From the NCBI GenBank assembly GCA_951406725.2, contig OX597823.1, forward strand, positions 28,210,001-28,274,000: 64,000 bases of DNA, written 5' to 3'. This document shows, piece by piece, positions 17,580-63,184 of this stretch (positions are counted from its first letter, which is position 1; every line of letters starts with the position of its first letter). Under the pieces are notes generated by a model. The model searched no databases. It was not told the origin of the DNA and worked only from the letters and a program-made list of their open reading frames with translations. The position numbers and the translations under genes were made by a program. This stretch comes from Octopus vulgaris. Taxonomy: Eukaryota.

Positions 17580-17918
17580 TTATCGCTTTCACAGTATTCT
17601 CCATTTGAAGCACTGCATCGGTCCAGACGCGTTTTCTACTGTTCGAAACACGCCAGGATCTCTTGCGATGCAATAACTTTTAACGTCTCTGTCGTATTTT
17701 GCTTCGCCTTTCCACATCTGCAAAACGATTTCCTTTAATGACTTTTTTCACTCGGCGCACAAAATAAAAGTCGCAGGGAGCAAGATCGGATGAATAAGGA
17801 GCGTAGGTAAGCAGAGTCATGCCATTTATAGTCAAAAACTCTTTCACATTCAATGCAGTTTGCACAGGTGCATTGTCGTCATGAAACCACCGATTTTCCC
17901 TTTGCTATAGATCAGGTG
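17580..17918 (-). pseudogene. mariner transposase C-terminal fragment
   Basis: YAPYSSDLAPCDFYF resembles the HPPYSPDLAPxDF motif; downstream RLDRCSASNGEY; frameshifted. Confidence 0.85.
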
Positions 17919-20470
17919 TTTTTCGAAAATTTTCTCCGAAAAATTTTCACCAACAAATTTTACCCAAAAATCTTTCGAAAATGTTCACCGAAAATTTTTC
18001 CCAAATATTTTTCGAAAATTTTCACCGAAAATTTTACCCAAAAATTTTCTGAAAATTTTTCCCGAAAATTCAACCGAAAAATTTTTCGAAAATTTTACCC
18101 AAAAGTTTTTCGAAACTCTTCACCGAAAATATACCCACAAAATTTTCCGAAAATTTTCGCGAAAATTTTACCCAAAAATTTTACCCAAAATTTTACCCAA
18201 AAGTTTTACCCAAAAGTTTTACCCAAAAATTTTACCCAAAACTTTTTCGAAAATGTTCACCGAAAATTTTACGAGAAAATTTTCACCGAAAATTTTTCGA
18301 AAATTTTACCCAAAAATTTTCTGAAAATTTTCACCGAAAATTTTACCCAAAAATTTTTGGAAAATATTCACACAAAATTTTACCCAAATACTTTTCGAAC
18401 ATTTTCACCGGAAAGTTTTCAAAAATTTTCACCGAAAATTTTCCCCAAAATTATCTGGAAATTTTCACAGAAAATTTTACCCAAAAATTTTCTGAAAATT
18501 TTCGCCGAAAATTTTACAAAAATTTTTCAAAATTTTCACCGAAAATATCCTCAAATATTTTTCGAAAATTTTCACCCAAAGATTTTTGAAAATTTTCACC
18601 GAAAATATCCTCAAAATTTTATGAAAATTTTCGCGAAAATTTACCCAAAACTTTTTCGAAAATTTTCACCGAAAAATTTTCAGCAACAAATTTTACCGAA
18701 AATTTTTCGAAAATTTTCACCGAAAATTTTTCGAAAATTTTTTTTACCAAAACTTTTCGAAAATGTTCACCGAAAATTTTACTGAAAATTTTCACCGACA
18801 ATTTTACGAAAATTTTTTTTCGAAAATTTTCACCGAAAATATCCTCACAAAATTTTTCGAAAATTTTCGCGAAAATTTTACCCAAAACTTTTTCGAAAAT
18901 GTTCACCGAAAATTTTACGAGAAAATTTTCACCGACAATTTTTCGAAAATTTTACCCAAAAATTTTTCGAAAATTTTGGCCGAAAATTTTACCCAAAACT
19001 TTTTCGAAAATGTTCACCGAAAATTTTACGAGAAAATTTTCACCGACAATTTTTCGAAAATTTTACCCAAAAATTTTTCGAAAATTTTACCCAAAAATTT
19101 TCTGAAAATTTTCACCGAAAATTTTACCCAAAAATTTTTGCCGAAAATTTTACCCAAAAATTTTTCGAAAATATTCACAGAAAATTTTACCCAGATACTT
19201 TTCGAAAATTTTCACCAGAAATTTTTCAAAAATTTTCACCGAAAATATTCCCCAAAAATTATCTGGAAATTTTCACAGAGAATTTTACCCAAAGATTCTT
19301 CAAAAAGATTCTCCGAAAATTTTACACAAAAATTTTAACCAAAATTTTTGGAAAATGTTCAATGAAAATTTTACCCAAATACCTTTCGAAAATTTTACCC
19401 AAAGATTTTCGAAAATTTTCACCGAAAATTTTACCCAAATATTTTTCTAAAATGTTCACCGAAAATTTTTCCCAAATATTTTTCGAAAATTTTCACCAAA
19501 GAATTTTCGAAAATTTTCACCGAAAATTTTACCCCAAAACTTTCTGAAAATTTTTACCGAAAATTCTAACCAAAAATTTGTCGAAAATTTTACCCAAAAC
19601 TTTTTCGAAAATGTTCACCGAAAATTTACACAAAAATTTTCACCAACAATTTTTCGAAAATTTTACCCAAAAATTTTGCGAAAATGTTCACCGAAAATTT
19701 TTGGGTAAAATTTTCGAAAAATTTTGGATATTTTCGTTGAAAATTTTCGAAAAATTTTTGGGTAGAATTTTCGGTAAAAATTTTCAGAAAATTTTTGGGT
19801 AAAATTTTCGGTGAAAATTTTCGAAAAATTTTTGGTGAAAATTTTGGAAAAATATTTGGGAAAAATTTTCGGTGAACATTTTCGAAAAATTTTTGGGTAA
19901 AATTTTAGGTGAAAATTTTTGAAAAATCTTTGGGTAAAATTCTTGTGAAAATTTCCAGATAATTTTTGGGGAAAATTTTCGGTGAAAATTTTTGAAAAAG
20001 TTTTGGTGAAAATTTTCGAAAAGTATTTGGGTAAAATTTTCTGTGAACATTTTCGAAAAATATTTGGGTATAATTTTCGGTGAAAATTTTTGAAAAATTT
20101 TTGGGTAAAATACTCTGAAAATTTCCAGATAATTTTCATTTTCGAAAAGTATTTGGGTAAAATTTTCGGTGAAAATTTTCGAAAAATATTTGTGAAAAAT
20201 TTTCGGTGAACATTTTCGAAAAATTTTTGGGTAAAATTTTCGAAAAATTGTTTGAAAATTTTTGTGTAAAATTTTCGGTGAACATTTTCGAAAAATTTTT
20301 GGGTAAAATTTTCGAAAAATTGTTGGTGAAAATTTTTGTGTAAAATTTTCGGTGAACATTTTTTCAAAAAAGTTTTGGGTAAAATTTTCACCAAAAATTT
20401 TTCGAAAATTTTCACCGAAAATATCCCCACAAAATTTTTCGAAAGTTTACCCAAAACTTTTTCTATTTGA
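17919..20470. repeat. AT-rich satellite of ~12-13-bp A4T4 subunits with internal inversions
   Basis: Units such as gaaaattttcacc / gaaaattttaccc; orientation flips near 19697 and again near 20383. Confidence 0.95.
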
Positions 20471-22710: not shown

Positions 22711-22718
<8 letters not shown>

Positions 22719-23619
22719 AAAAAAGGTTTGAAAATGCAATTTAAACGATGTTTATTTACTTAACCGGTTTCACTCTTTGGTAAAAGATTGTCAAAAGTTA
22801 CATTTAAGGAAACATTGAATAATATGGGTTCAAAAAAGTTTTTTTACATAATTGTCACATTGAATATTATGCATTCTAAAAAGTTTTTTACATAATTGTC
22901 ACATTGGATATTATGGGTTCAAAAAAAGTTTTTTACATAATTGTCACATTGAATATTATGCATTCAAAAAAGTTTTTTACATAATTGTCACATTGGATAT
23001 TATGAATTCAAAAATGTTTTTTTATACATAATTGTCACATTATTTGGGAAAATTTGGCAGAAAAGGATAAAACAAATATATTATTGGGAATTGGTTGCGT
23101 TAATTATTGGTTGTCGCAAATTGTCACATTACATGTATATATATACAATCTTTGGTATATATATACAGCGTTTTGACAGCAAAAATTAAAATGGATTTTT
23201 TGTACATCTCAGAATATTTTAAGTATGTTTTTACTGACCTGTCAGTATTAGCAGAAAGGCTGAACTGAGAGAACAGAAGAAGTAGCCAATGTGGTGTATA
23301 CTTCCCCTTTATGCATGAATGATTTTGGGGTTATCAGGAGGTTAGTATGCGGGTGTGAATAGATGTGTCCGTGCCTGCTGGTCAGACAGCGTCTGTTTGT
23401 CACACACATATATATACACACAAACACACACACACACAACAACACACACACACACACACATAGTATACAAACACACACCACATACAAACAACACACACAC
23501 ACACAGAACACACACACCCACACACAACGCACCCACATATATCACATATACACACAGCACACAAATATAACATGTATCTATATATAACATACACAGATAT
23601 ATAACACACATACACACAC

Positions 23620-23665
<46 letters not shown>

Positions 23666-24236
23666 TACATACATAATATAAATATCACACAAATACACCT
23701 AGCATATATATACACACATACAATACACACATACAGCATGTAAGTAATATACATACACAATATATGCATGCAATATACATACGCAATACATACATATAAT
23801 ATATATATATATAGACAATGCATATACATATATACACATATACATATAAATAGTGTTTACATACACATACATAGATGTACCACATATACACACAACACAC
23901 ATACATACAATGCATACACATACACGTACGCATACATATAATATATATATACACACACACACACATAACATACATACACACACAATGCATACATATATAT
24001 ACACGCAATGCATATACATGTATTCATGCACATATAGCACACCTACAATATACATATATACAGTGCACACATACACACAAATATATACACTTAATTGTAC
24101 ACGTACATATACAATACACATACATACAATATACATATACACAATGCGCATGCAAATAATGTACATGTTTATACACACATAAACATGCAAATAAATATAC
24201 ACACACACACATACACACACACACATATATATACAC

Positions 24237-24268
<32 letters not shown>

Positions 24269-24348
24269 ATACATACATACATGCACATACATATATTTTT
24301 TCACACACATACACACACATATATATATAAAAAAAATTCACCACCCCC
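22711..24348 (-). repeat. Left pseudo-LTR arm (sense to the ORF)
   Basis: Reverse complement of 27831-29385; has 5 copies of a ~44-bp cataattgtcacatt unit versus 3 in the right arm. Confidence 0.95.
22758..22798 (-). ncRNA. Minimal hammerhead ribozyme motif, U3-A8 core variant
   Basis: Minus strand: ACTT-TTGACAA-tcttt-tacc-aaaga-gt-GAA-ACCGGT-T-AAGT. Confidence 0.6.
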
Positions 24349-24464
24349 CCACACACACAAATTACAAACCTATAGCGTACACACTCAAATATATCTCTAC
24401 ATGCCGCACATACACACAAACAAAGTACTAACATATACACACATACCATGCATATACACACACA

Positions 24465-24506
<42 letters not shown>

Positions 24507-24680
24507 AAACAGATACATATGTAAATACATACACACGTACACAATGCTCACACACACACACACACATACACACACACCCGCACACAGTGCACACACACAC
24601 ACACATATATACACACGTGCACACACACACACACATACAACGCGCGCACACACACATATATACACACACACGCACACAGT

Positions 24681-24712
<32 letters not shown>

Positions 24713-24897
24713 CACTCACACACATACATCACCTACATATATATAATGCATGCGTGTGCATGCCACGTATGTGTGCGGTCAATGCCCGCTAGTGTGTCCT
24801 ATGCGTGCCGATGCGCGCATGTGCCCGCCCGCACGATATGCTGTGAGCGTGCGCGCGTCCCTGTGTGCTTGCTCTGGATGTGCTTCCAGGGAGTATG

Positions 24898-27159
24898 TTA
24901 GAGTATGTTTAGTTGTGGTCTGTATTTTTGAATAAGATTACTTTCCTTATTTATTCGTGTTTGGTCTGTGGTGTTGTCCGAGCATTGGTATAGTGGGAAG
25001 ACTAAGAATTTGGGGGACTTATTGTGTGCACAAAGGTCTAAGTGTCCACTTAGTGGTATCTGTCTTGTGGAGGGGTCCCTCAGTTGTTGTCGGTGAACTG
25101 TCATTCTGTCTCTGAGGGTAAGGCTCGTTTGCCCTATGTAGTCTTCGTGGCATCCTTCACACCTTATGACGTAGAGTAAATTTTTTGATGCGCACGTGAA
25201 GTTATTTTTTATGATGAATGTGTGTCCCGAGTGGAACTTGTACGACGATCCCTCAATGAGGTGGATGCAGGTCTTACAGTTGGGGCGACCACATTTTTTG
25301 ATGGTGGGCGGTGGGTTTGTGTTGTGTAATTTTGCGTTGGTGAGGAGGTTTTTTAGGGATTTAGGTTGTCTCTTACTTTTTATTATTTTATGAGCTGCCA
25401 GTATTTTTTTCAGGCGTGGGTCTTGATTTAGTTGTGGAATGTTGTTGTATATAATAGTGTAAGCTTCTGCATTCCTTGGGTTGTGTGTTGAGAGATAAGG
25501 GAGGCTATTGACTGTACTGTGGATGTGTTTGGGTTTTCGAAGGTCTTGAATGTTGATTGATTTGGCCCGTTCTATTCCGTTGTCTACTAGTGATGCCGGG
25601 TAATGTCTTTCGAGAAGAATTGCCCTTAGTTCCCGGAGTCTTCTATTTCGTGTTGTGTCATTTGAGACAATAGTGCAGATTCTTCTCGCTAGGTTGAAGG
25701 GGATATTTGTCTTTGTGTGTTTTGGGTGATTGGAGGTGAATAGAAGGTATTGTTTAGAGTCAGTGGGTTTGTAATGGATGTCAGTTTCAATGTTGACGCC
25801 TTTTTTAATGATTAGGATGTCAAGAAAAGGGAGTTGGTCCTGACTATATTCCATTGTGAATTGAATGTTGTTATTTACACTGTTGATAAGGTTTTTGAAG
25901 TCTATAAGTTGGTCGAGTGTGTGGGACCATAGGATGAGGCAATCATCTAAGTAGCGTTTCCAGTTCTCCAACAGGTATTTGTGGAAAGACTGGCCGTACT
26001 TATATTTGGATTTTTCATAGATATGTGATTCCAGGTAGGCCATCACCAGGTTTGCATAGGTAGGTGCAACTTTCGTACCCATTGCAGTCCCTGAGACCTG
26101 TCTGTAAGTGTTGTTGTGGAAATACATGAAGTTGTTTTGCAGAATAAATTTGAGGCCCTCAATTATGAATTCTTTTTTAATTCTTTCCGGGATCTCATTG
26201 GGATATTTATCCAGCCAGAATTTAATGGCTTCCAGTCCAAATTCATGTGGGATTGTGGTGTAAAGATTAATAACATCAAAAGAAACGATTAAGGTGTCTT
26301 TATCGGCATGTTTGGGGAGATGGTTTAATAGGTCCAGGTCATCTCTTACAATACTTGGAATGTGTTTCAGTATTGGCTTTAAGATGATATCTATAAAGTT
26401 GCTAAGTCTGTGTGTTTCACAACTTGGGCCTGCCACTATTGGTCTCAGTTTGAGATCAGTGGGATGTGGTATAGTGATGCAGGTTGAAGTGGACTTTTTG
26501 CAAGCTTCTGTGATAATTTTTGGAAGCCCATAGAGTGTGCTGGTTTTGCAATTAAATTTAGTAATGTAGTCGCATTCCTTTGCTGCCAAGTCATTCTGGT
26601 GTTGGTAAATGAGTGCCTTCAGATTGGTCATTGTTTTGGATTGCTGGTAGTCGACTACTCTTTCGTAGTATGTGGTATCCTCTAAAAGGAGAGATACAGA
26701 GTTTTTATATTGCTCAGTATTCATAACAACGACCGTACTACCCTTATCAGCTTCCTTTATTGTGACGTCATGATTGTCTCGTAGCGTATGGATGATTTCC
26801 CATTCTCTTTTACTGGTGTTGGGTTTGAGTTTAGGTTGTGGGAGTTCACCATAAGGGAAGTTGGAGATGTAATCGCAAAATTTGTCTAAGGTTTTGTTTT
26901 TGCCTTTTATGGGATTATAGTTGCTTTTGTTACAGACCATTGATTCGTCGTTATTATTAGTTTTTCTGTCAAAAAATTCCTCTGTGAGGCGTAATTTTCT
27001 GCAAAAGTGCGAGATGTCATCCTGTATTTCCCTCAGGTTAGGGTATTGCGGAGTTGGGGTGAATTTTAGTCCTCTTGAAAGGATTTTTATTTGTGGTGTC
27101 GACAGGTTTAGGTTAGAAAGATTCACTATTTTTGGTTTTTCGGGGTTGGTATCTACCAT
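24898..27159 (-). CDS. Penelope-like (Neptune clade) reverse transcriptase + GIY-YIG endonuclease, 753 aa
   Basis: ADKG, LRPIV, SFDVINLYT, QVSGTAMG, RYLDD, LPFLD RT motifs; CGRPNCKTC linker; NLLYVIRCEGCHEDYIGQT GIY-YIG. Confidence 0.95.
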   Translation of the reverse strand: MVDTNPEKPKIVNLSNLNLSTPQIKILSRGLKFTPTPQYPNLREIQDDISHFCRKLRLTEEFFDRKTNNNDESMVCNKSNYNPIKGKNKTLDKFCDYISNFPYGELPQPKLKPNTSKREWEIIHTLRDNHDVTIKEADKGSTVVVMNTEQYKNSVSLLLEDTTYYERVVDYQQSKTMTNLKALIYQHQNDLAAKECDYITKFNCKTSTLYGLPKIITEACKKSTSTCITIPHPTDLKLRPIVAGPSCETHRLSNFIDIILKPILKHIPSIVRDDLDLLNHLPKHADKDTLIVSFDVINLYTTIPHEFGLEAIKFWLDKYPNEIPERIKKEFIIEGLKFILQNNFMYFHNNTYRQVSGTAMGTKVAPTYANLVMAYLESHIYEKSKYKYGQSFHKYLLENWKRYLDDCLILWSHTLDQLIDFKNLINSVNNNIQFTMEYSQDQLPFLDILIIKKGVNIETDIHYKPTDSKQYLLFTSNHPKHTKTNIPFNLARRICTIVSNDTTRNRRLRELRAILLERHYPASLVDNGIERAKSINIQDLRKPKHIHSTVNSLPYLSTHNPRNAEAYTIIYNNIPQLNQDPRLKKILAAHKIIKSKRQPKSLKNLLTNAKLHNTNPPPTIKKCGRPNCKTCIHLIEGSSYKFHSGHTFIIKNNFTCASKNLLYVIRCEGCHEDYIGQTSLTLRDRMTVHRQQLRDPSTRQIPLSGHLDLCAHNKSPKFLVFPLYQCSDNTTDQTRINKESNLIQKYRPQLNIL

Positions 27160-27830
27160 CTGGTGTCGTGGAAACTGATGCCCTTGCCTAAAAAAGGAAT
27201 CCTGGGGGTTCTTCTATTTGCGGTATTTTGCTGTATGTGATTCTGTCCCCCGTTGACATGTCTGTTGAAGAGGTTTTGGTTGTTGTGATTCTGTCCCCCG
27301 TTGCTATGTTGTCTGTTGAGGAGGTTTTGGTTGTTCCAGGGTCTGGGTTGTTGGTGTGGCCTCCTGGAAGAGTTTTGGTTATTCCAGGGTTTGGGTTGTT
27401 TGTCCTGGGTGTAATGTTGGTTCCTTAGAGTGGGTTGGAAACTATATTCATGGTTTAGGAGTGAATTCCTATATGTTGGGGGAGAACTCTGAGTTAGGAG
27501 CGGTTTGGGTTGGAATCTACAATCATAGTTCAGAGATGGGTTTCTAAGTGATGGGTAGGATCTCCGAATCTGGAACGGTTCTTGTGTGGGTTGGGGTCTA
27601 CGTTGTCTGGTAAAGTTTTGTCGTGTGATGATGGGTGTCTCGGTTCTTTTGATGGGATTGTAGTGCTGTCTGTAAGTTCTGTTGTTGTTGTTGTCGATGT
27701 TAGGGGTGGTGTGTGTTCGGTGTTTTGTGGTTGGTTTTCTTTGTTTTTGGCGAGGGGTGTGAGTTGAAGTAGATATTTTAAAATATGGGTTGCTTGAAAG
27801 GTGTTCCTTTGTGAACTCTGTTTCATAATT
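27153..27830 (-). CDS. 5'-truncated upstream ORF (ORF1-like; N/Q/R/P/T-rich), overlapping the RT ORF
   Basis: Manual translation: 225 sense codons with no stop from the pLTR junction (NYETEFTKEHLSSNPYF...) to ...RRTPRIPFLGKGISFHDTRW*; no start codon, so absent from the ORF track. Confidence 0.75.
   Translation of the reverse strand, partial: NYETEFTKEHLSSNPYFKISTSTHTPRQKQRKPTTKHRTHTTPNIDNNNNRTYRQHYNPIKRTETPIITRQNFTRQRRPQPTQEPFQIRRSYPSLRNPSLNYDCRFQPKPLLTQSSPPTYRNSLLNHEYSFQPTLRNQHYTQDKQPKPWNNQNSSRRPHQQPRPWNNQNLLNRQHSNGGQNHNNQNLFNRHVNGGQNHIQQNTANRRTPRIPFLGKGISFHDTRW
27189..27195 (-). promoter_or_regulatory. Candidate -1 ribosomal frameshift slippery heptamer U UUU UUA
   Basis: Minus strand ccT TTT TTA ggc is in the ORF1 frame; the -1 frame is open into the RT ORF (FFRQGHQFPRHQMVDTN). 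Confidence 0.6.
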
Positions 27831-28521
27831 GGGGGTGGTGAATTTTTTATATATATATATGTGTGTGTATGTGTGTGAAAAAATATATGTATGTGCATGT
27901 ATGTATGTATGTATGTGTGTATATATATATATATATATGTGTATATATATGTGTGTGTGTGTATGTGTGTGTGTGTATATTTATTTGCATGTTTATGTGT
28001 GTATAAACATGTACATTATTTGCATGCGCATTGTGTATATGTATATTGTATGTATGTGTATTGTATATGTACGTGTACAATTAAGTGTATATATTTGTGT
28101 GTATGTGTGCACTGTATATATGTATATTGTAGGTGTGCTATATGTGCATGAATACATGTATATGCATTGCGTGTATATATATGTATGCATTGTGTGTGTA
28201 TGTATGTTATGTGTGTGTGTGTGTATATATATATTATATGTATGCGTACGTGTATGTGTATGCATTGTATGTATGTGTGTTGTGTGTATATGTGGTACAT
28301 CTATGTATGTGTATGTAAACACTATTTATATGTATATGTGTATATATGTATATGCATTGTCTATATATATATATATTATATGTATGTATTGCGTATGTAT
28401 ATTGCATGCATATATTGTGTATGTATATTACTTACATGCTGTATGTGTGTATTGTATGTGTGTATATATATGCTAGGTGTATTTGTGTGATATTTATATT
28501 ATGTATGTATGTGTGCGTGTG

Positions 28522-28556
<35 letters not shown>

Positions 28557-29385
28557 GTGTGTATGTGTGTTATATATCTGTGTATGTTATATATAGATAC
28601 ATGTTATATTTGTGTGCTGTGTGTATATGTGATATATGTGGGTGCGTTGTGTGTGGGTGTGTGTGTTCTGTGTGTGTTCTGTGTGTGTGTGTGTTGTTTG
28701 TATGTGGTGTGTGTTTGTATACTATGTGTGTGTGTGTGTGTGTTGTTGTGTGTGTGTGTGTTTGTGTGTATATATATGTGTGTGACAAACAGACGCTGTC
28801 TGACCAGCAGGCACGGACACATCTATTCACACCCGCATACTAACCTCCTGATAACCCCAAAATCATTCATGCATAAAGGGGAAGTATACACCACATTGGC
28901 TACTTCTTCTGTTCTCTCAGTTCAGCCTTTCTGCTAATACTGACAGGTCAGTAAAAACATACTTAAAATATTCTGAGATGTACAAAAAATCCATTTTAAT
29001 TTTTGCTGTCAAAACGCTGTATATATATACCAAAGATTGTATATATATACATGTAATGTGACAATTTGCGACAACCAATAATTAACGCAACCAATTCCCA
29101 ATAATATATTTGTTTTATCCTTTTCTGCCAAATTTTCCCAAATAATGTGACAATTATGTATAAAAAAACATTTTTGAATTCATAATATCCAATGTGACAA
29201 TTATGTAAAAAACTTTTTTGAATGCATAATATTCAATGTGACAATTATGTAAAAAAACTTTTTTTGAACCCATATTATTCAATGTTTCCTTAAATGTAAC
29301 TTTTGACAATCTTTTACCAAAGATGAAACCGGTTAAGTAAATAAACATCGTTTAAATTGCATTTTCAAACCTTTTTTCTTATATA
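27831..29385 (+). repeat. Right pseudo-LTR arm (inverted), followed by a unique 35-nt tail at 29386-29420
   Basis: Reverse complement of 22711-24348; tail atcccactcgtgcgataccccacaactcaactttt is absent from the left arm. Confidence 0.95.
29299..29338 (+). ncRNA. Minimal hammerhead ribozyme motif, U3-A8 core variant
   Basis: ACTT-TTGACAA-tcttt-tacc-aaaga-t-GAA-ACCGGT-T-AAGT; stem I ACTT/AAGT, palindromic stem III. Confidence 0.62.
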
Positions 29386-31664: not shown

Positions 31665-33280
31665 ATACGACCGTAAGCCCGAACGCATCATCGAAAACGA
31701 TTATGCAAAGATCCTGTGGGATTTTATTATTCAGTGCGACCATGAGATAGAGAATAGGAAGCCAGACATAGTCTTAATTGAGAAAGAAAACAAACGATGC
31801 TGGATCATAGATATAGCATGAAAGCACCCGTGCTAAAACTGCTGCCTTAGATATTCTGACTAATAAATGGCAAGGAAAACCTCTCAATGGCAAATACCCA
31901 AATAGAGCGAATAATACCGATGTTGACAAATACCTTACCCATCAATGGCTAATAGCTTCTGGCTTAAAATCTAAAACAGAAGAGTTTATCAAAGCAGCCC
32001 AAGATCAATGCCTCCCTACAAGGAACTACCAGGCCAACATTTTAAAGAACAGCAGCTTCCCAACATGTCGTGTATGTCAACAACAAAATGAAACCATTGA
32101 TCATGTTGTCTCCATGTGCAGTGTTCTTGTGCCTACAGAGTATGTCAACAGGCATGATAGAGCTGCACAATATGTTCACAGAATAATTTGCAAAATCCTG
32201 GACTTGCCCCATGATAAAAACTGGTGGGAAAACAAACCACCCCCAGCGCTTGAAAATGATCTCATCTCGCTTTTCTGGAACTTCACCATTCAAACTGACA
32301 GAAAGATAGATGCAAATAAACCAGACATCATATTGAAACACTTCAGACAAAGAACATGCCTCCTCATTGATATGATTGTCCCAATCGATATGAAAGTATC
32401 TGTCAAGACCTACCAAAAACTGAGCAAGTATAAAGATATTGAAATAGAAATTGGCAAAATGTAGAACCTGAAGATAAAGACAATACCTGTTGTCATAGAT
32501 GCCCTAGGAATGAAAGCAAAATGGGCTGATTGCTACCTATCTCAGATACCAGGAAACCCCAAAATGGCAGAAATTCAAAAGATAGTGCTCATTGAACTGC
32601 CCATATCCTACGTAAAATATTGTCTATGTAATCTCAAATTTTAAAACAAACACATAATTTTCTTATGGTTTCTTAAACATTCTGTAGAACAACACTATGT
32701 AAAAAGCTAAATATATGGCATCCTAGGCATAACACCAACATGAACTTCCATCTTATTGTCTCTTGAGGTCTCTGGGTGAGACTTGGAGCCAACTTGTACA
32801 AATGCAAAGCAAAAGTCAAACACAACATAATAATAATAGAACAATGCAACATTAAAACTGACAATAGGTGGTACAAACATAAGCGAAACAAGGTACAAGA
32901 CAATGAGCAAGGCATCACCATCTGGGATATGCCGGTTCAAACCGACGAAGAAATATAAGCTAGTCTGTCAGATATACTAATCAAGGATTGTGAAAAGAAA
33001 AAAACACACCTGCTTACTGGCAGTCATTACAGCCCCTTCTGATCAAAATATTATCCTAAAAGAAGTGGAGAAATGATCATAAAAGCCTTGAAATTGAAGT
33101 ATTTATGATGTGGGGCATGGAGGTGGAGAGAGTACTAATAATGATTGGAACTCAGCGCATGATAAAAACCATTTGAACAAAAACGTAGAAGCTATACCTG
33201 GATCTTCAACACTACACACCATCCAAAAAATAGCCCTGCTAGGAACAGCCTACACCCTACGCAAGCCACTATCAATTAAA
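31663..33280 (+). mobile_element. Chain of three 5'-truncated RLE-type (Dong/R4-like) LINE fragments
   Basis: 31663-31820 ILWDF..RKPDIVL..IIDIA; 31821-32826 AAQDQ, CRVC..ETIDHVVSMC, RHD, KPDI, KLSKY plus 3'UTR ending in (TAA); 32839-33280 TIWDM..IQKIALLGTA. Confidence 0.88.
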
Positions 33281-39208: not shown

Positions 39209-40818
39209 GGGGAAGTGAAAGGGAAAGTGAAGACCACAAATTCAGTCGTGTTAGATGTTGACACAGTCATAAGAGAGCTTGAGCAAGAACAAACATACAA
39301 ATATTTAGGGATAAATGAAGGCTCTGGTATTCAGCATGCAAGCATGAAAGAGAAAATCAGGAAGGAATGTTATAGGAGAGTTCGTGCAGTCCTGAAATCT
39401 GAACTAAATGCACGTAACAAGGTGTTAGCTATAAATTCCTTAGCAGTTCCAGTTGTTACTTATAGCTACAATGTGTTGAACTGGAATATGAGTGAAGTAA
39501 AGAATATAGATAGAAAAATACGCAAGCTGCTGAGTTGTAATAGGATGCACCACCCAAAGGCAGACGTAGATCGCCTTTACCTTCCCAGAGCCCAAGGAGG
39601 TCGAGGCCTGATCCAATTTGAACTAGCTTACAAAACAACCACAATTGGACTGGCCAAATATCTCGAAATATCGAATGACTGGATGCTAAAGCTCGTGGAA
39701 AATCACGAGAGACGAAAGAAGCTTCATTCTATCATAAAGGAAAGCAAAAAATTTGCTATTGATCTCGTGCAGGATACCCAAACTGAACAACCCGAGGGAA
39801 GTACGGCAACTATTGTTGCAAAGAAGGTGAAAATGATGGCAATGAAGAAAGCGCACGAGCAATTGGCTGATAGGTGGGAGGAGAAACCTCTGCACGGCAA
39901 ATATGTGACCCGCAGCAAACAAGCTGATGTTGACCAGAAGCAAATCCATCAGTGGCTACGGAGCTCAGGGCTAAAAGCAGAGAGCGAAGGTTTCATCCTG
40001 GCTGCTCAAGATCAAAGCCTATTAACCCGGAACTACCAGGCCAATGTGATGAAAAATGGAGCAGACCCAAAATGCCGATTCTGCAACGACATGATTGAAA
40101 CAGTGGACCACCTAATCTCTGGATGTAAAGTCTTAGCACCAGTGGAGTATAAATTAAGACATGACAGAGTTGGCCAATATCTCCACTGGCTAATAAGTCG
40201 GCATTACAATATCAAAACTGCCGACAAGTGGTATAATCACCACCCTGAGGCTGTAACTGAAGGAGAAAATGTAACCATTCTGTGGGACTTTCCAGTACAT
40301 ACAGACCGAACCATCACGGCCAATAAACCAGATATTGTTGTGAAAGACCAAAATAATAAAGTTTGCTTATTGATCGATATGAGCATCCCCTGTGATCATA
40401 ATATCTCAGCGAAAGAGTTTGACAAGCTCAGAAAATATAAAGACCTACTCATTGAAATTGAGAAAATGTGGCATCTCAAGGCGGTTACAATACCAGTGAT
40501 CGTAGGAGCACTAGGAATGATCAAGAAGGGAACCGAAAATTATATGAGAATGATCCCTGGCTTACCATCCCTGCAAGAAGTGCAAAAGATTGTCTTAACT
40601 GGTACATCACACGTATTGAGAAGAGCATTGTTGATGTGAGAACTGTTGCTGCTCATGTATTTTAATTTAACTAAAAAAAAAAAAAAAAAAAAAAAAAAAT
40701 GAACGAACTACTGAGTTTGATTTAATGGCCTACCATTGTATACTATGAGCTTCTTTGCCCTAGGAGTCGGGAAGACACTCGGCAAGAAATGGAAGCAAAT
40801 TTGAAAGAAGAAAAAAAA

Positions 40819-61784: not shown

Positions 61785-62215
61785 TGTTGATACTCCTGGA
61801 GTCTTGCCTGCGTAGAGGGCTTACTACCTGCACACTACGGTACCATGCTATTCGTTTTTTTCAGCTCTTTTATACTTTCATGATTATTTTGGCCGTGTTA
61901 AGGAGACAAACCTCTTGTAATAGTTCCTCTGGGCACTCTATTCCAAATTCCTTTATATTCCTCTTGATGTCTTCTGATACTGTTCCCAAGGACCCAATAA
62001 TAATTGGCATTATCTTCACCTTCATTTTCCAAACCAGATCTGTTTGGATTGGGAAATCCCAGAGGATTTTGCTAGTCTCTGACTCTGCCACACTCTGAGG
62101 TCTGTCCTCATACCACGTCTTGCCTCTCTCTAGCCCCCCCCCCCACCACTTTTCGCATAGTTTCCAATGTAGCACTTTCGCTACCTGGTCGTGTCCCCAC
62201 AACTTGTAGTGGTTT
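61785..62215 (-). mobile_element. RLE LINE 3' fragment with internal deletion
   Basis: HDQVAKVLHW, ILWDFPIQTD, MPIIIGSLG, LQEVCLLNTA. Confidence 0.85.
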
Positions 62216-63184
62216 GGGGCAAGTTCAGGGCTTTGGTTCGTGATATGGGCAATGGTTTCATCTACTCAATTACAGATGCGGCACAGCGGAGACACTTATC
62301 CATTTCTAAGAATGCCCCACGCCTGAGGTTGGTCCCGCGCTGCCAGTATAGTCCTTGTGGTCTCATTTTTTAGGTTTCCTTTCATCAGCTAATCCCACCT
62401 ATTTTTTCAGCGACTTCTGTTGTGGCTACATGGAATTGATCCCTTCTTGCGTAATTCTTCTTTATATCTTTTATATTTATAATTATAATAATGATAATTA
62501 TTATTGTTGTTGTTGCTCTTCTTCTTCTTCTTCTTCTTCTTCTTCTTCTTCTTCTTCTTCTTCTTCTTCTTTCTTTTGCTTTTGCATAGCGATAGCAAAA
62601 GCCTGTAGTTGAAACCCAGTATGCCTATTTGTAAATCTGTGCGATTTGTTTGTGCGTATTTTGCGTTCTTGTGTATGTATTCGTATCGTATGCTAGGCCA
62701 TCTATCTAGTCTTTTGACTTATAGCGTCTAGTTTAAAATGCACAGAGATTCTTTTTTTTATTTCTATAACCACGAGTGTGCAACGTGTATCATGAAGAGA
62801 TTGTGAATGAAACGAAGAAGGAGAGAAAAGAAAAAAAGAGAAAAAGACTTAAAGAAAAGTAAAATTACCGTATGAATTGATTTCTTTGAAGATGTAATGT
62901 ATTTGATACCTCACTGATACTGACGTGTTTTGAATCGAACTATTTTTCTATCAGGTGATAAAAAAACGGATATATAAAGGTGCTATATGAACTATCAGAA
63001 GCTTTTGAAGATTTCCAAGTGAGAATAATTTGGTAGACTGAGGAGAAGACTGCTAGTTTTGGAAGTGAAGTTAATGTGCACTTTAATACTTTGAACATTA
63101 CCATAATTTGTGTGGCGAAGGGGAGCCAAGCACATAAATAAATTGATTGGTGTATAGTTTAGACATATACACCTATATGCTTTT

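Follow-up and report, generated by a model that had tools for sequence, protein, structure and literature searches.

How does a transposable element make its reverse transcriptase (RT) when the RT frame opens inside the end of another reading frame, one base out of step with it? The question is raised by a truncated Penelope-like element (PLE) on the minus strand of a 64,000-nucleotide (nt) stretch of the Octopus vulgaris genome (assembly GCA_951406725.2, contig OX597823.1, positions 28,210,001 to 28,274,000 of the forward strand), which we call the window and whose own numbering we use throughout. The junction between the two frames is real and conserved: the frames overlap, a slippery heptamer lies in the overlap in the right phase, the arrangement recurs in the family and in a wider clade, and the upstream open reading frame (ORF1) belongs to a family of stand-alone proteins. 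We argue that the RT, which carries a GIY-YIG endonuclease, is very probably the product of programmed −1 ribosomal frameshifting at a U UUU UUA close to the ORF1 end.

Two overlapping frames meet at a phased heptamer

The ORF1 frame stays open for 225 codons from 27830 to a TAG at 27155 to 27153 (feature 27153 to 27830, minus strand) and contains no Met. From the frame itself and a 17-residue match to a related locus, it would comprise the last ~18 residues of a conserved helical domain followed by a basic tail rich in N, R, Q and P (K+R = 35 and D+E = 10 in the stretch), with PWNNQN at residues 148 and 164 and NGGQNH at residues 177 and 193. At least 220 open codons, in any frame, were found in 0.3% of 20,000 dinucleotide shuffles of the stretch. 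The RT frame, −1 relative to ORF1, is open for 771 codons from 27213 to 24898, just behind a TAG at 27216 to 27214, and is assigned by a match to Pfam RVT_1 (E = 5.8e-08), by its motifs and by its relatives. Within the 58-nt overlap of the two frames (27156 to 27213) lies T TTT TTA (27195 to 27189), a heptamer of the X XXY YYZ type in which TTT TTA are codons of ORF1 and from which a −1 slip enters the RT frame. A sequence-only reading of the window had described these frames, the basic peptide with its repeats and the heptamer, and all of its coordinates hold.

The offset is not a copy error

Contigs from 7 sequencing runs of 7 studies (20 runs are listed, and one of the seven is possibly the window's own source) were aligned over the junction, and the T-run was counted as bridged when at least 31 letters lay on both sides of it. 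Main-family contigs bridge it without a gap in 6 of the 7 runs (X1, X2, X7, X9, X11 and X13), and the main record of the seventh, X8, agrees with the window and stops 11 bases beyond the T-run. Subfamilies 81 to 88% identical (X13 record 1; X8 records 12, 18 and 19; X9 record 21) are also gap-free across the site; their listed changes fall at 27173 to 27185 and 27196 to 27201 and none falls at 27186 to 27195 (7 rows are not shown). In an X13 variant 3 bases are deleted, which leaves the phase intact. The offset between ORF1 and RT is not a copy error, and the 1-nt indel in the T-run that the sequence-only reading had raised as a possibility is absent from the main family.

These alignments bear on the view that the family has a single ORF and that the offset is a mutation of the window copy or of a dead lineage, or else a homopolymer assembly error. 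A low-depth X8 variant in which TTT TTA stands in the RT frame would suit that view, as would two distant elements (L015 and L023) with a long in-frame N-terminal extension. Against it stand the six runs that match the window, the same offset in 8 of 9 loci of the clade described below, and the lack of any fused protein among the best 120 RT and the best 150 ORF1 relatives. We consider this reading largely refuted and its probability close to nil.

The same contigs account for the missing start of ORF1. The inverted-repeat junction of the window copy lies at 27830/27831, and in 4 of 4 runs the alignments share a loose end at 27832 beyond which other copies continue into different sequence (565 to 729 bases in three runs). 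The 30 letters shown beyond that point are stop-free in the ORF1 frame and encode the K and W of a motif of the ORF1 family, K-x2-W-x3-Y-E-x2-F-x8-P, the second half of which is the start of the window ORF1 peptide. The start codon is thus missing because of 5' truncation.

The junction is conserved in the clade of the element

An alignment of 34 RT proteins was used as a search query and returned 75 metagenome and 48 genome-bin loci; of these 123, the first RT motif served as an anchor in 66. The genome-bin loci are presumably host DNA in bins. The window element falls in a clade defined by a 26-residue RT insert (branch support 100 in a quick tree, 63 rows), to which L007, L012 and L016, left out of the tree by length, stop or motif filters, were assigned by the insert or by identity. 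Nine members have a readable junction, and 11 further close loci lack the 5' part. Eight of the nine have the heptamer within the overlap and in phase, as T6A in the window, L001, L002, L005, L007 and L012 and as T6G in L077 and L016, where 0.1 would be expected from the rate in RT bodies. The T6 block is the sole invariant block of the junction alignment. Since the flanks are 22 to 43% identical, except for L002 and L012 at 78%, these loci represent ~7 independent lineages with the heptamer. The RT frame opens 0 to 15 codons ahead of the heptamer and ORF1 closes 1 to 19 codons behind it. The conservation of heptamer, frame and overlap that the sequence-only reading proposed as a check is therefore borne out in the clade.

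In a separate observation, PLEs L076 to L123 and proteins P0016, P0032, P0041 and P0075 carry bacterial labels (symbiont or sponge-type bins), most likely because of host DNA contaminating the bins.

The RT relatives found number 811, and the best 120 are all at most 803 amino acids long, although lengths up to 1350 were allowed. Their called starts bear on a second explanation, in which RT translation begins at its own ATG (27159 to 27157, in the RT frame), where the ATGGTAG overlap would permit termination-reinitiation or leaky scanning and the heptamer would be a relic or a second route. This ATG does stand 4 nt ahead of the ORF1 stop, and 53 of the best 120 relatives, the closest ones included, are called with a start at least 4 residues before the first motif. 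Gene callers also write GTG and TTG starts as Met, however, and the called start lies inside the motif in 44 of the relatives and further down in 23. Among the heptamer loci only the window has a Met upstream of the first RT motif, and none of the seven related loci does (L001 has one inside the motif). The ATG is changed to ATT, ATA or AAG (at 27157 and 27158) in diverged-subfamily contigs of X8, X13 and X9, and the ORF1 TAG is altered in 13 contigs (11 TAC, 2 TAA), with the heptamer unchanged in both cases. Reinitiation, which the sequence-only reading had offered as its alternative, is weakened by these findings: it cannot be general across the clade, it is doubtful in the window element, whose ATG is likely an internal Met and not a start, and as an account of the RT we rate it improbable.

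ORF1 proteins carry a trace of the heptamer

A profile built from three full or near-full ORF1s was searched against 1.84 billion representatives (E 0.001, no length limit) and matched 731 clusters, of which the best 150 are all at most 536 amino acids long, with none fused to an RT. The junction could be examined in 107 of these 150, namely those with the domain end and a tail of at least 60 residues. Of the 107, 69 have Phe-Leu within their last 30 residues (3.6 expected) and 80 within their last 45 (5.3 expected). K, E, Q, M and W make up 21% of tail residues, yet none of them stands before Phe-Leu in any of these 80 (P = 7e-09). Because the codons of these five residues cannot end in T, their absence marks the first T of the heptamer. 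Judged from the proteins, this Phe-Leu, which is encoded by TTT TTA and TTT TTG alike, is an independent trace of both the heptamer and its phase.

A codon starting with G follows Phe-Leu in 56 of the 80 relatives, and an AG follows the T-run in 6 of 6 T6A loci of the clade. Both would fit a splice acceptor at TTTTTTAG, with a spliced RNA joining an upstream part of ORF1 to the RT, and introns retained in PLEs are in print (PMC8557442). The same G, however, creates a TAG in the −2 frame of all 6 T6A loci, so that the acceptor-like AG is explained without splicing, and L077 and L016 read T6GT, which has no AG. The 14 nt upstream are only 21 to 43% pyrimidine in 7 of 8 loci, another AG lies within 20 nt in 6 of 8, all 8 have a run of nothing but T, and ORF1 is open exactly through the site. 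A weaker point is that no joint or loose end among those listed falls at 27187/27188, in runs that we guessed to be RNA. Splicing at this site strikes us as very improbable.

What kind of protein ORF1 encodes is less readily answered. A structure predicted for the ORF1 of L002 is all-helical (mean predicted local distance difference test score 86.6). Among 72 family members, any given Pfam family matches 2 at most, and Foldseek gave no match to the model at E 0.001. VIA matched generic helical bundles, the syntaxin Habc domain among them, at best with Z 9.1 and a root-mean-square deviation of 6.5 across 124 residues, which is below the meaningful level for helical folds and was set aside, and a best ESM Atlas score of 0.83 is a lead only. 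We describe the ORF1 family as large, outside Pfam and predicted to be helical. The window ORF1 appears to belong to it, given a 17-residue match to L012 ORF1 (pairwise E 0.001), the K and W that the loose-end letters add from the family motif, and the composition of the tail. A weak search of the window fragment against longer proteins gave 253 candidates, none at E ≤ 1, and among viral contigs 60 pattern matches gave no confirmed case. The proposal that this is a gag-pol-like bicistronic Neptune family is thus supported with two qualifications. The two ORFs and the heptamer hold, but a likeness to gag is not supported for ORF1, a predicted helical bundle that neither Pfam nor the fold searches could match, and the Neptune label rests on motifs.

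A proposed mechanism and the evidence against it

Under the mechanism that we propose, most ribosomes would stop at the ORF1 stop and yield a protein of ~400 to 450 residues, a helical bundle with a basic disordered tail. From that tail and by analogy, this protein would likely serve as an RNA-binding coat or chaperone for the element RNA. A few percent of ribosomes would slip and yield an ORF1-RT-endonuclease fusion, so that a high ratio of ORF1 to RT would be fixed, as in gag/gag-pol. Slippage would depend on how readily U6A shifts by itself, possibly aided by a ribosome queue behind the ORF1 stop. That inherent shifting matters because no RNA structure was found at the site, and U6A is reported to give 4 to 6% −1 shifting with no stimulator in reticulocyte lysate (PMC3458567). 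A close known parallel is HIV-1 gag-pol, which shares U UUU UUA, the Phe-Leu/Phe-Phe-Arg reading and a −2 frame stop straight after the heptamer (PMC3458567 for the last). The window element differs from it in having no downstream stem-loop and an ORF1 with neither zinc knuckle nor gag domain, and in not being a virus.

Several observations weigh against frameshifting. A stimulatory stem-loop or pseudoknot 5 to 9 nt downstream was not found in the window: z scores are positive (+0.67, +1.68 and +1.13) and no pseudoknot is predicted; the sequence-only reading, too, had seen no convincing one. Across the 8 clade loci downstream hairpins occur only in L001 and L005, and none is clade-wide. L008 has no T6; the phased heptamer there is A AAA AAC, and the frame upstream of it is open for only 48 codons. 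Phe-Leu is absent from the last 45 residues of 27 of the 107 ORF1 relatives, and the window ORF1 fragment gives no score on the family hidden Markov model. The closest RT relatives, P0002 to P0007, seen as protein only and not as DNA, have a called Met 11 to 18 residues before the first motif. Finally, in two low-depth X8 records, with a loose end behind 27172, an additional base is inserted between the heptamer and the part aligned to the RT, which puts the heptamer out of phase; this variant is either one copy that has mutated or a natural fusion.

The ORF1 stop keeps a fixed distance

If the site has no structured stimulator, could something else at the junction take its place? In the 80 ORF1 relatives with Phe-Leu, the stop follows after 10 codons in 26 and after 1 codon in 10, and falls at 2 to 9 codons in 1, where geometric models predict 22 to 37. 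The 10 residues themselves are 10% alike in the 10-codon group, and the domains of that group are a median 34% alike. Of the 25 members that could be placed, a 28-row branch holds 22 and a second branch the other 3, and the 1-codon group forms a single branch, which points to a few lineages keeping the spacing over long distances and not to 26 events. Among the clade loci the heptamer and the stop are 11 codons apart in the window, 10 in L007 and L016, 12 in L002 and L012 and 1 in L005.

Ten codons is about the length of one ribosome in eukaryotes. Ribosome queues at stop codons are described with a spacing of ~27 nt in bacteria (PMC7544508), and disomes at stop codons are described in yeast and human cells (PMC9661723). 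It is possible, if on balance doubtful, that this large clade of endonuclease-bearing (EN+) elements uses a structure-free −1 frameshift with the ribosome itself as stimulator, the stop being held 10 to 12 codons behind U UUU UUA. A terminating ribosome would pause, the follower would be parked on the slippery site, and RT output would be coupled to the ribosome traffic on ORF1. No paper on a stop-spaced stimulator of frameshifting was found in our literature search, with Repbase and subscription journals lying outside it. A plainer alternative is a constraint on the protein, a linker in the RT frame that is hydrophilic and has a hydrophobic residue at position 13. ORF1 stops require xTA or xTG codons, which are hydrophobic, in the RT frame, so that such a linker gives the same pattern; across the 8 loci, position 13 reads M, L, C, S, L, C, S and I. 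That diverged subfamilies have lost the TAG speaks against the stop being strictly needed. The ribosome queue and the protein constraint both require the heptamer site as the switch point.

A second clade with a different heptamer

Is the arrangement confined to the clade of the window element? In a distant clade (L053 to L056, L061, L063, L066 to L069, L071 and L075; 12 of 15 rows, all contigs from one assembly and some of them duplicates; junction, for example, at L061:3141-3180), G GGT TT(T/C) stands in the same phase, 0 to 2 codons before the end of ORF1. Where intact, the ORF1 of this clade is 340 to 430 amino acids long. It shares homology with the N-terminal extension that L015 and L023 carry in frame (probability 91%, E 1e-06), so that one and the same domain occurs fused in some elements and linked by a frameshift in others. 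Profile comparison detected no homology of the window-clade ORF1 to this ORF1 (0.1% probability) or to the single-ORF N-terminal extensions (2.4% probability), though an IP(R/K) motif lines up. A short hairpin with some compensatory changes recurs 6 to 9 nt downstream in the second clade, and a consensus hairpin has only 3 pairs in an ungapped alignment.

The variant heptamer bears on slippage of the polymerase during transcription as the source of the shift, a reading that the homopolymer at the junction invites and to which minor transcriptional slippage mentioned for HIV-1 (PMC6771820) lends an example. The strict codon phase and the G GGT TTT of the second clade instead fit tRNA re-pairing on the ribosome. 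Six T are, moreover, short for polymerase slippage, and we find this explanation hardly credible.

Neither heptamer signal was seen in the other distant groups. In L025 (~500-515), L030 (~1833-1857), L039 and L042 an upstream ORF stands in the −1 relation with no strict heptamer, and the ORF1s of L025 and L030 end in AAACAATGA, with an ATG/TGA overlap that is suggestive of stop-start coupling.

The element is of the Neptune type

The RT has the PLE-type motifs GLKF (GxKF/Y) and KEADKG (DKG). Its C-terminal GIY-YIG core (25030 to 25176, located by motif and alignment) carries C, C, H and H residues that are invariant in the RT alignment; the domain has no Pfam score in the window protein, and PF01541 is listed for many relatives. 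Upstream of it, at 25293 to 25267, lies a zinc-finger-like C-x4-C-x2-C linker of the CX2-5CxxC form common to Neptune and Nematis (defined in PMC8557442). With Neptune-type EN+ elements as that source describes them, the element shares GxKF and DKG, the linker, the C-terminal GIY-YIG with CCHH, an inverted pseudo-long terminal repeat (pLTR) at the 5' truncation and a (TA)n flank. RT and endonuclease are also alike by eye to Neptune1_Ap in the supplement of PMC8557442. The window clade differs from such elements by its 26-residue insert between PKIHK and RPIV, which we rejected as the fingers-domain insertion of Naiad elements since its position differs. The N-terminal endonuclease and DKA of Naiad are not found here, the endonuclease being C-terminal and the motif DKG, and the presence of GIY-YIG sets the element apart from Athena/Terminon, whose RT ORF has no endonuclease. 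On these motifs and the comparison by eye we call the element Neptune-type, and do not file it as a member of Neptune. A PDB sequence search with the RT gave no match.

The junction sets the element apart from published descriptions in another respect. Athena/Terminon elements use an ORF1 frameshift site of this kind. According to the legend of Fig. 1 of PMC8557442, a frameshift with a pseudoknot may separate off the ORF1 of PLEs; such two-ORF PLEs share with the window element a helical ORF1 upstream of the RT and joined to it by a frameshift, a probable one in the window element, and the window element differs in having its own C-terminal endonuclease and no pseudoknot that we could find. 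The two-ORF form is tied to elements lacking an endonuclease in PMC6431247, and canonical EN+ elements are called single-ORF in PMC8557442, whereas in the window, the family and the clade a separate ORF1 overlaps the RT at the slippery site. A killifish Neptune has two long non-overlapping ORFs, and the word frameshift is absent from the accessible text (PMC12602865). The accessible parts of PMC11167929, PMC4209133, PMC6515669, PMC3846280, PMC5718144 and 10.64898/2026.07.22.740005 add no frameshift for EN+ elements, and the literature search described above found no paper on a slippery site in a GIY-YIG-bearing element. ORF1 frameshifts in PLEs are thus already in print as such; the conserved overlap and heptamer in an EN+ clade would appear to be the departure.

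Layout of the insertion and other features of the window

Behind the RT frame, the 3' untranslated region begins with a part that has no duplicate in the inverted arm (24349 to 24897) and continues into the pLTR (22711 to 24348), which is rich in simple repeats and ends at a (TA)n run. An inverted copy of the 3' region on the plus strand (27831 to 29385) cuts off the 5' side of ORF1. Alignment of the arms gives 98.5% identity over 1461 columns between 27831-29285 and 24348-22901 and 95.9% between 29144-29385 and 22950-22711. Arms so placed and so alike (96 to 98.5%) have the layout given for 5'-truncated Penelope-like insertions (PMC8557442). Aligned with P0001, the window RT also lacks 5 residues after YGLPKI (near 26514), including an HK pair that is nearly invariant in relatives. 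Because of the truncation and this loss in a conserved RT motif, the window copy is probably inactive.

No hammerhead ribozyme was found in the pLTR, either as an Rfam match or as a core by pattern, though minimal variants can escape and the true 5' end is absent from this copy. A look-alike on the minus strand at 23337 to 23279, mirrored in the other arm (CTGATAA, a short C/G stem, GAAG), does not fold as a hammerhead. Rfam gave only microRNA-like noise at simple repeats in the window.

A unit of ~45 to 47 nt stands in several tandem copies near the 3' end of the element (22812 to 23041 and 29144 to 29285), its copy number differing between the arms. Elsewhere in the window, a minisatellite array of 12 to 13 nt units extends over ~2.5 kb (17900 to 20430) and switches orientation near 19720, and open frames at 31817 to 32461 (+), 39209 to 40636 (+) and 61873 to 62265 (−) resemble by eye pieces of other non-LTR (long terminal repeat) retrotransposon proteins.

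Implications

If frameshifting is true for a clade of hundreds of families, the annotated RT proteins of that clade lack their true N-terminus. Transposition assays would then need ORF1. In vitro work uses a protein of the single-ORF type. The ORF1 family, which has no Pfam match, would offer a handle on RNA packaging by telomerase-related elements, and the fixed spacing of its stop would allow a cheap test of −1 stimulation by terminating ribosomes. In the second clade, a domain fused in frame in some elements and apparently linked by a frameshift in others would be a direct parallel to gag and pol.

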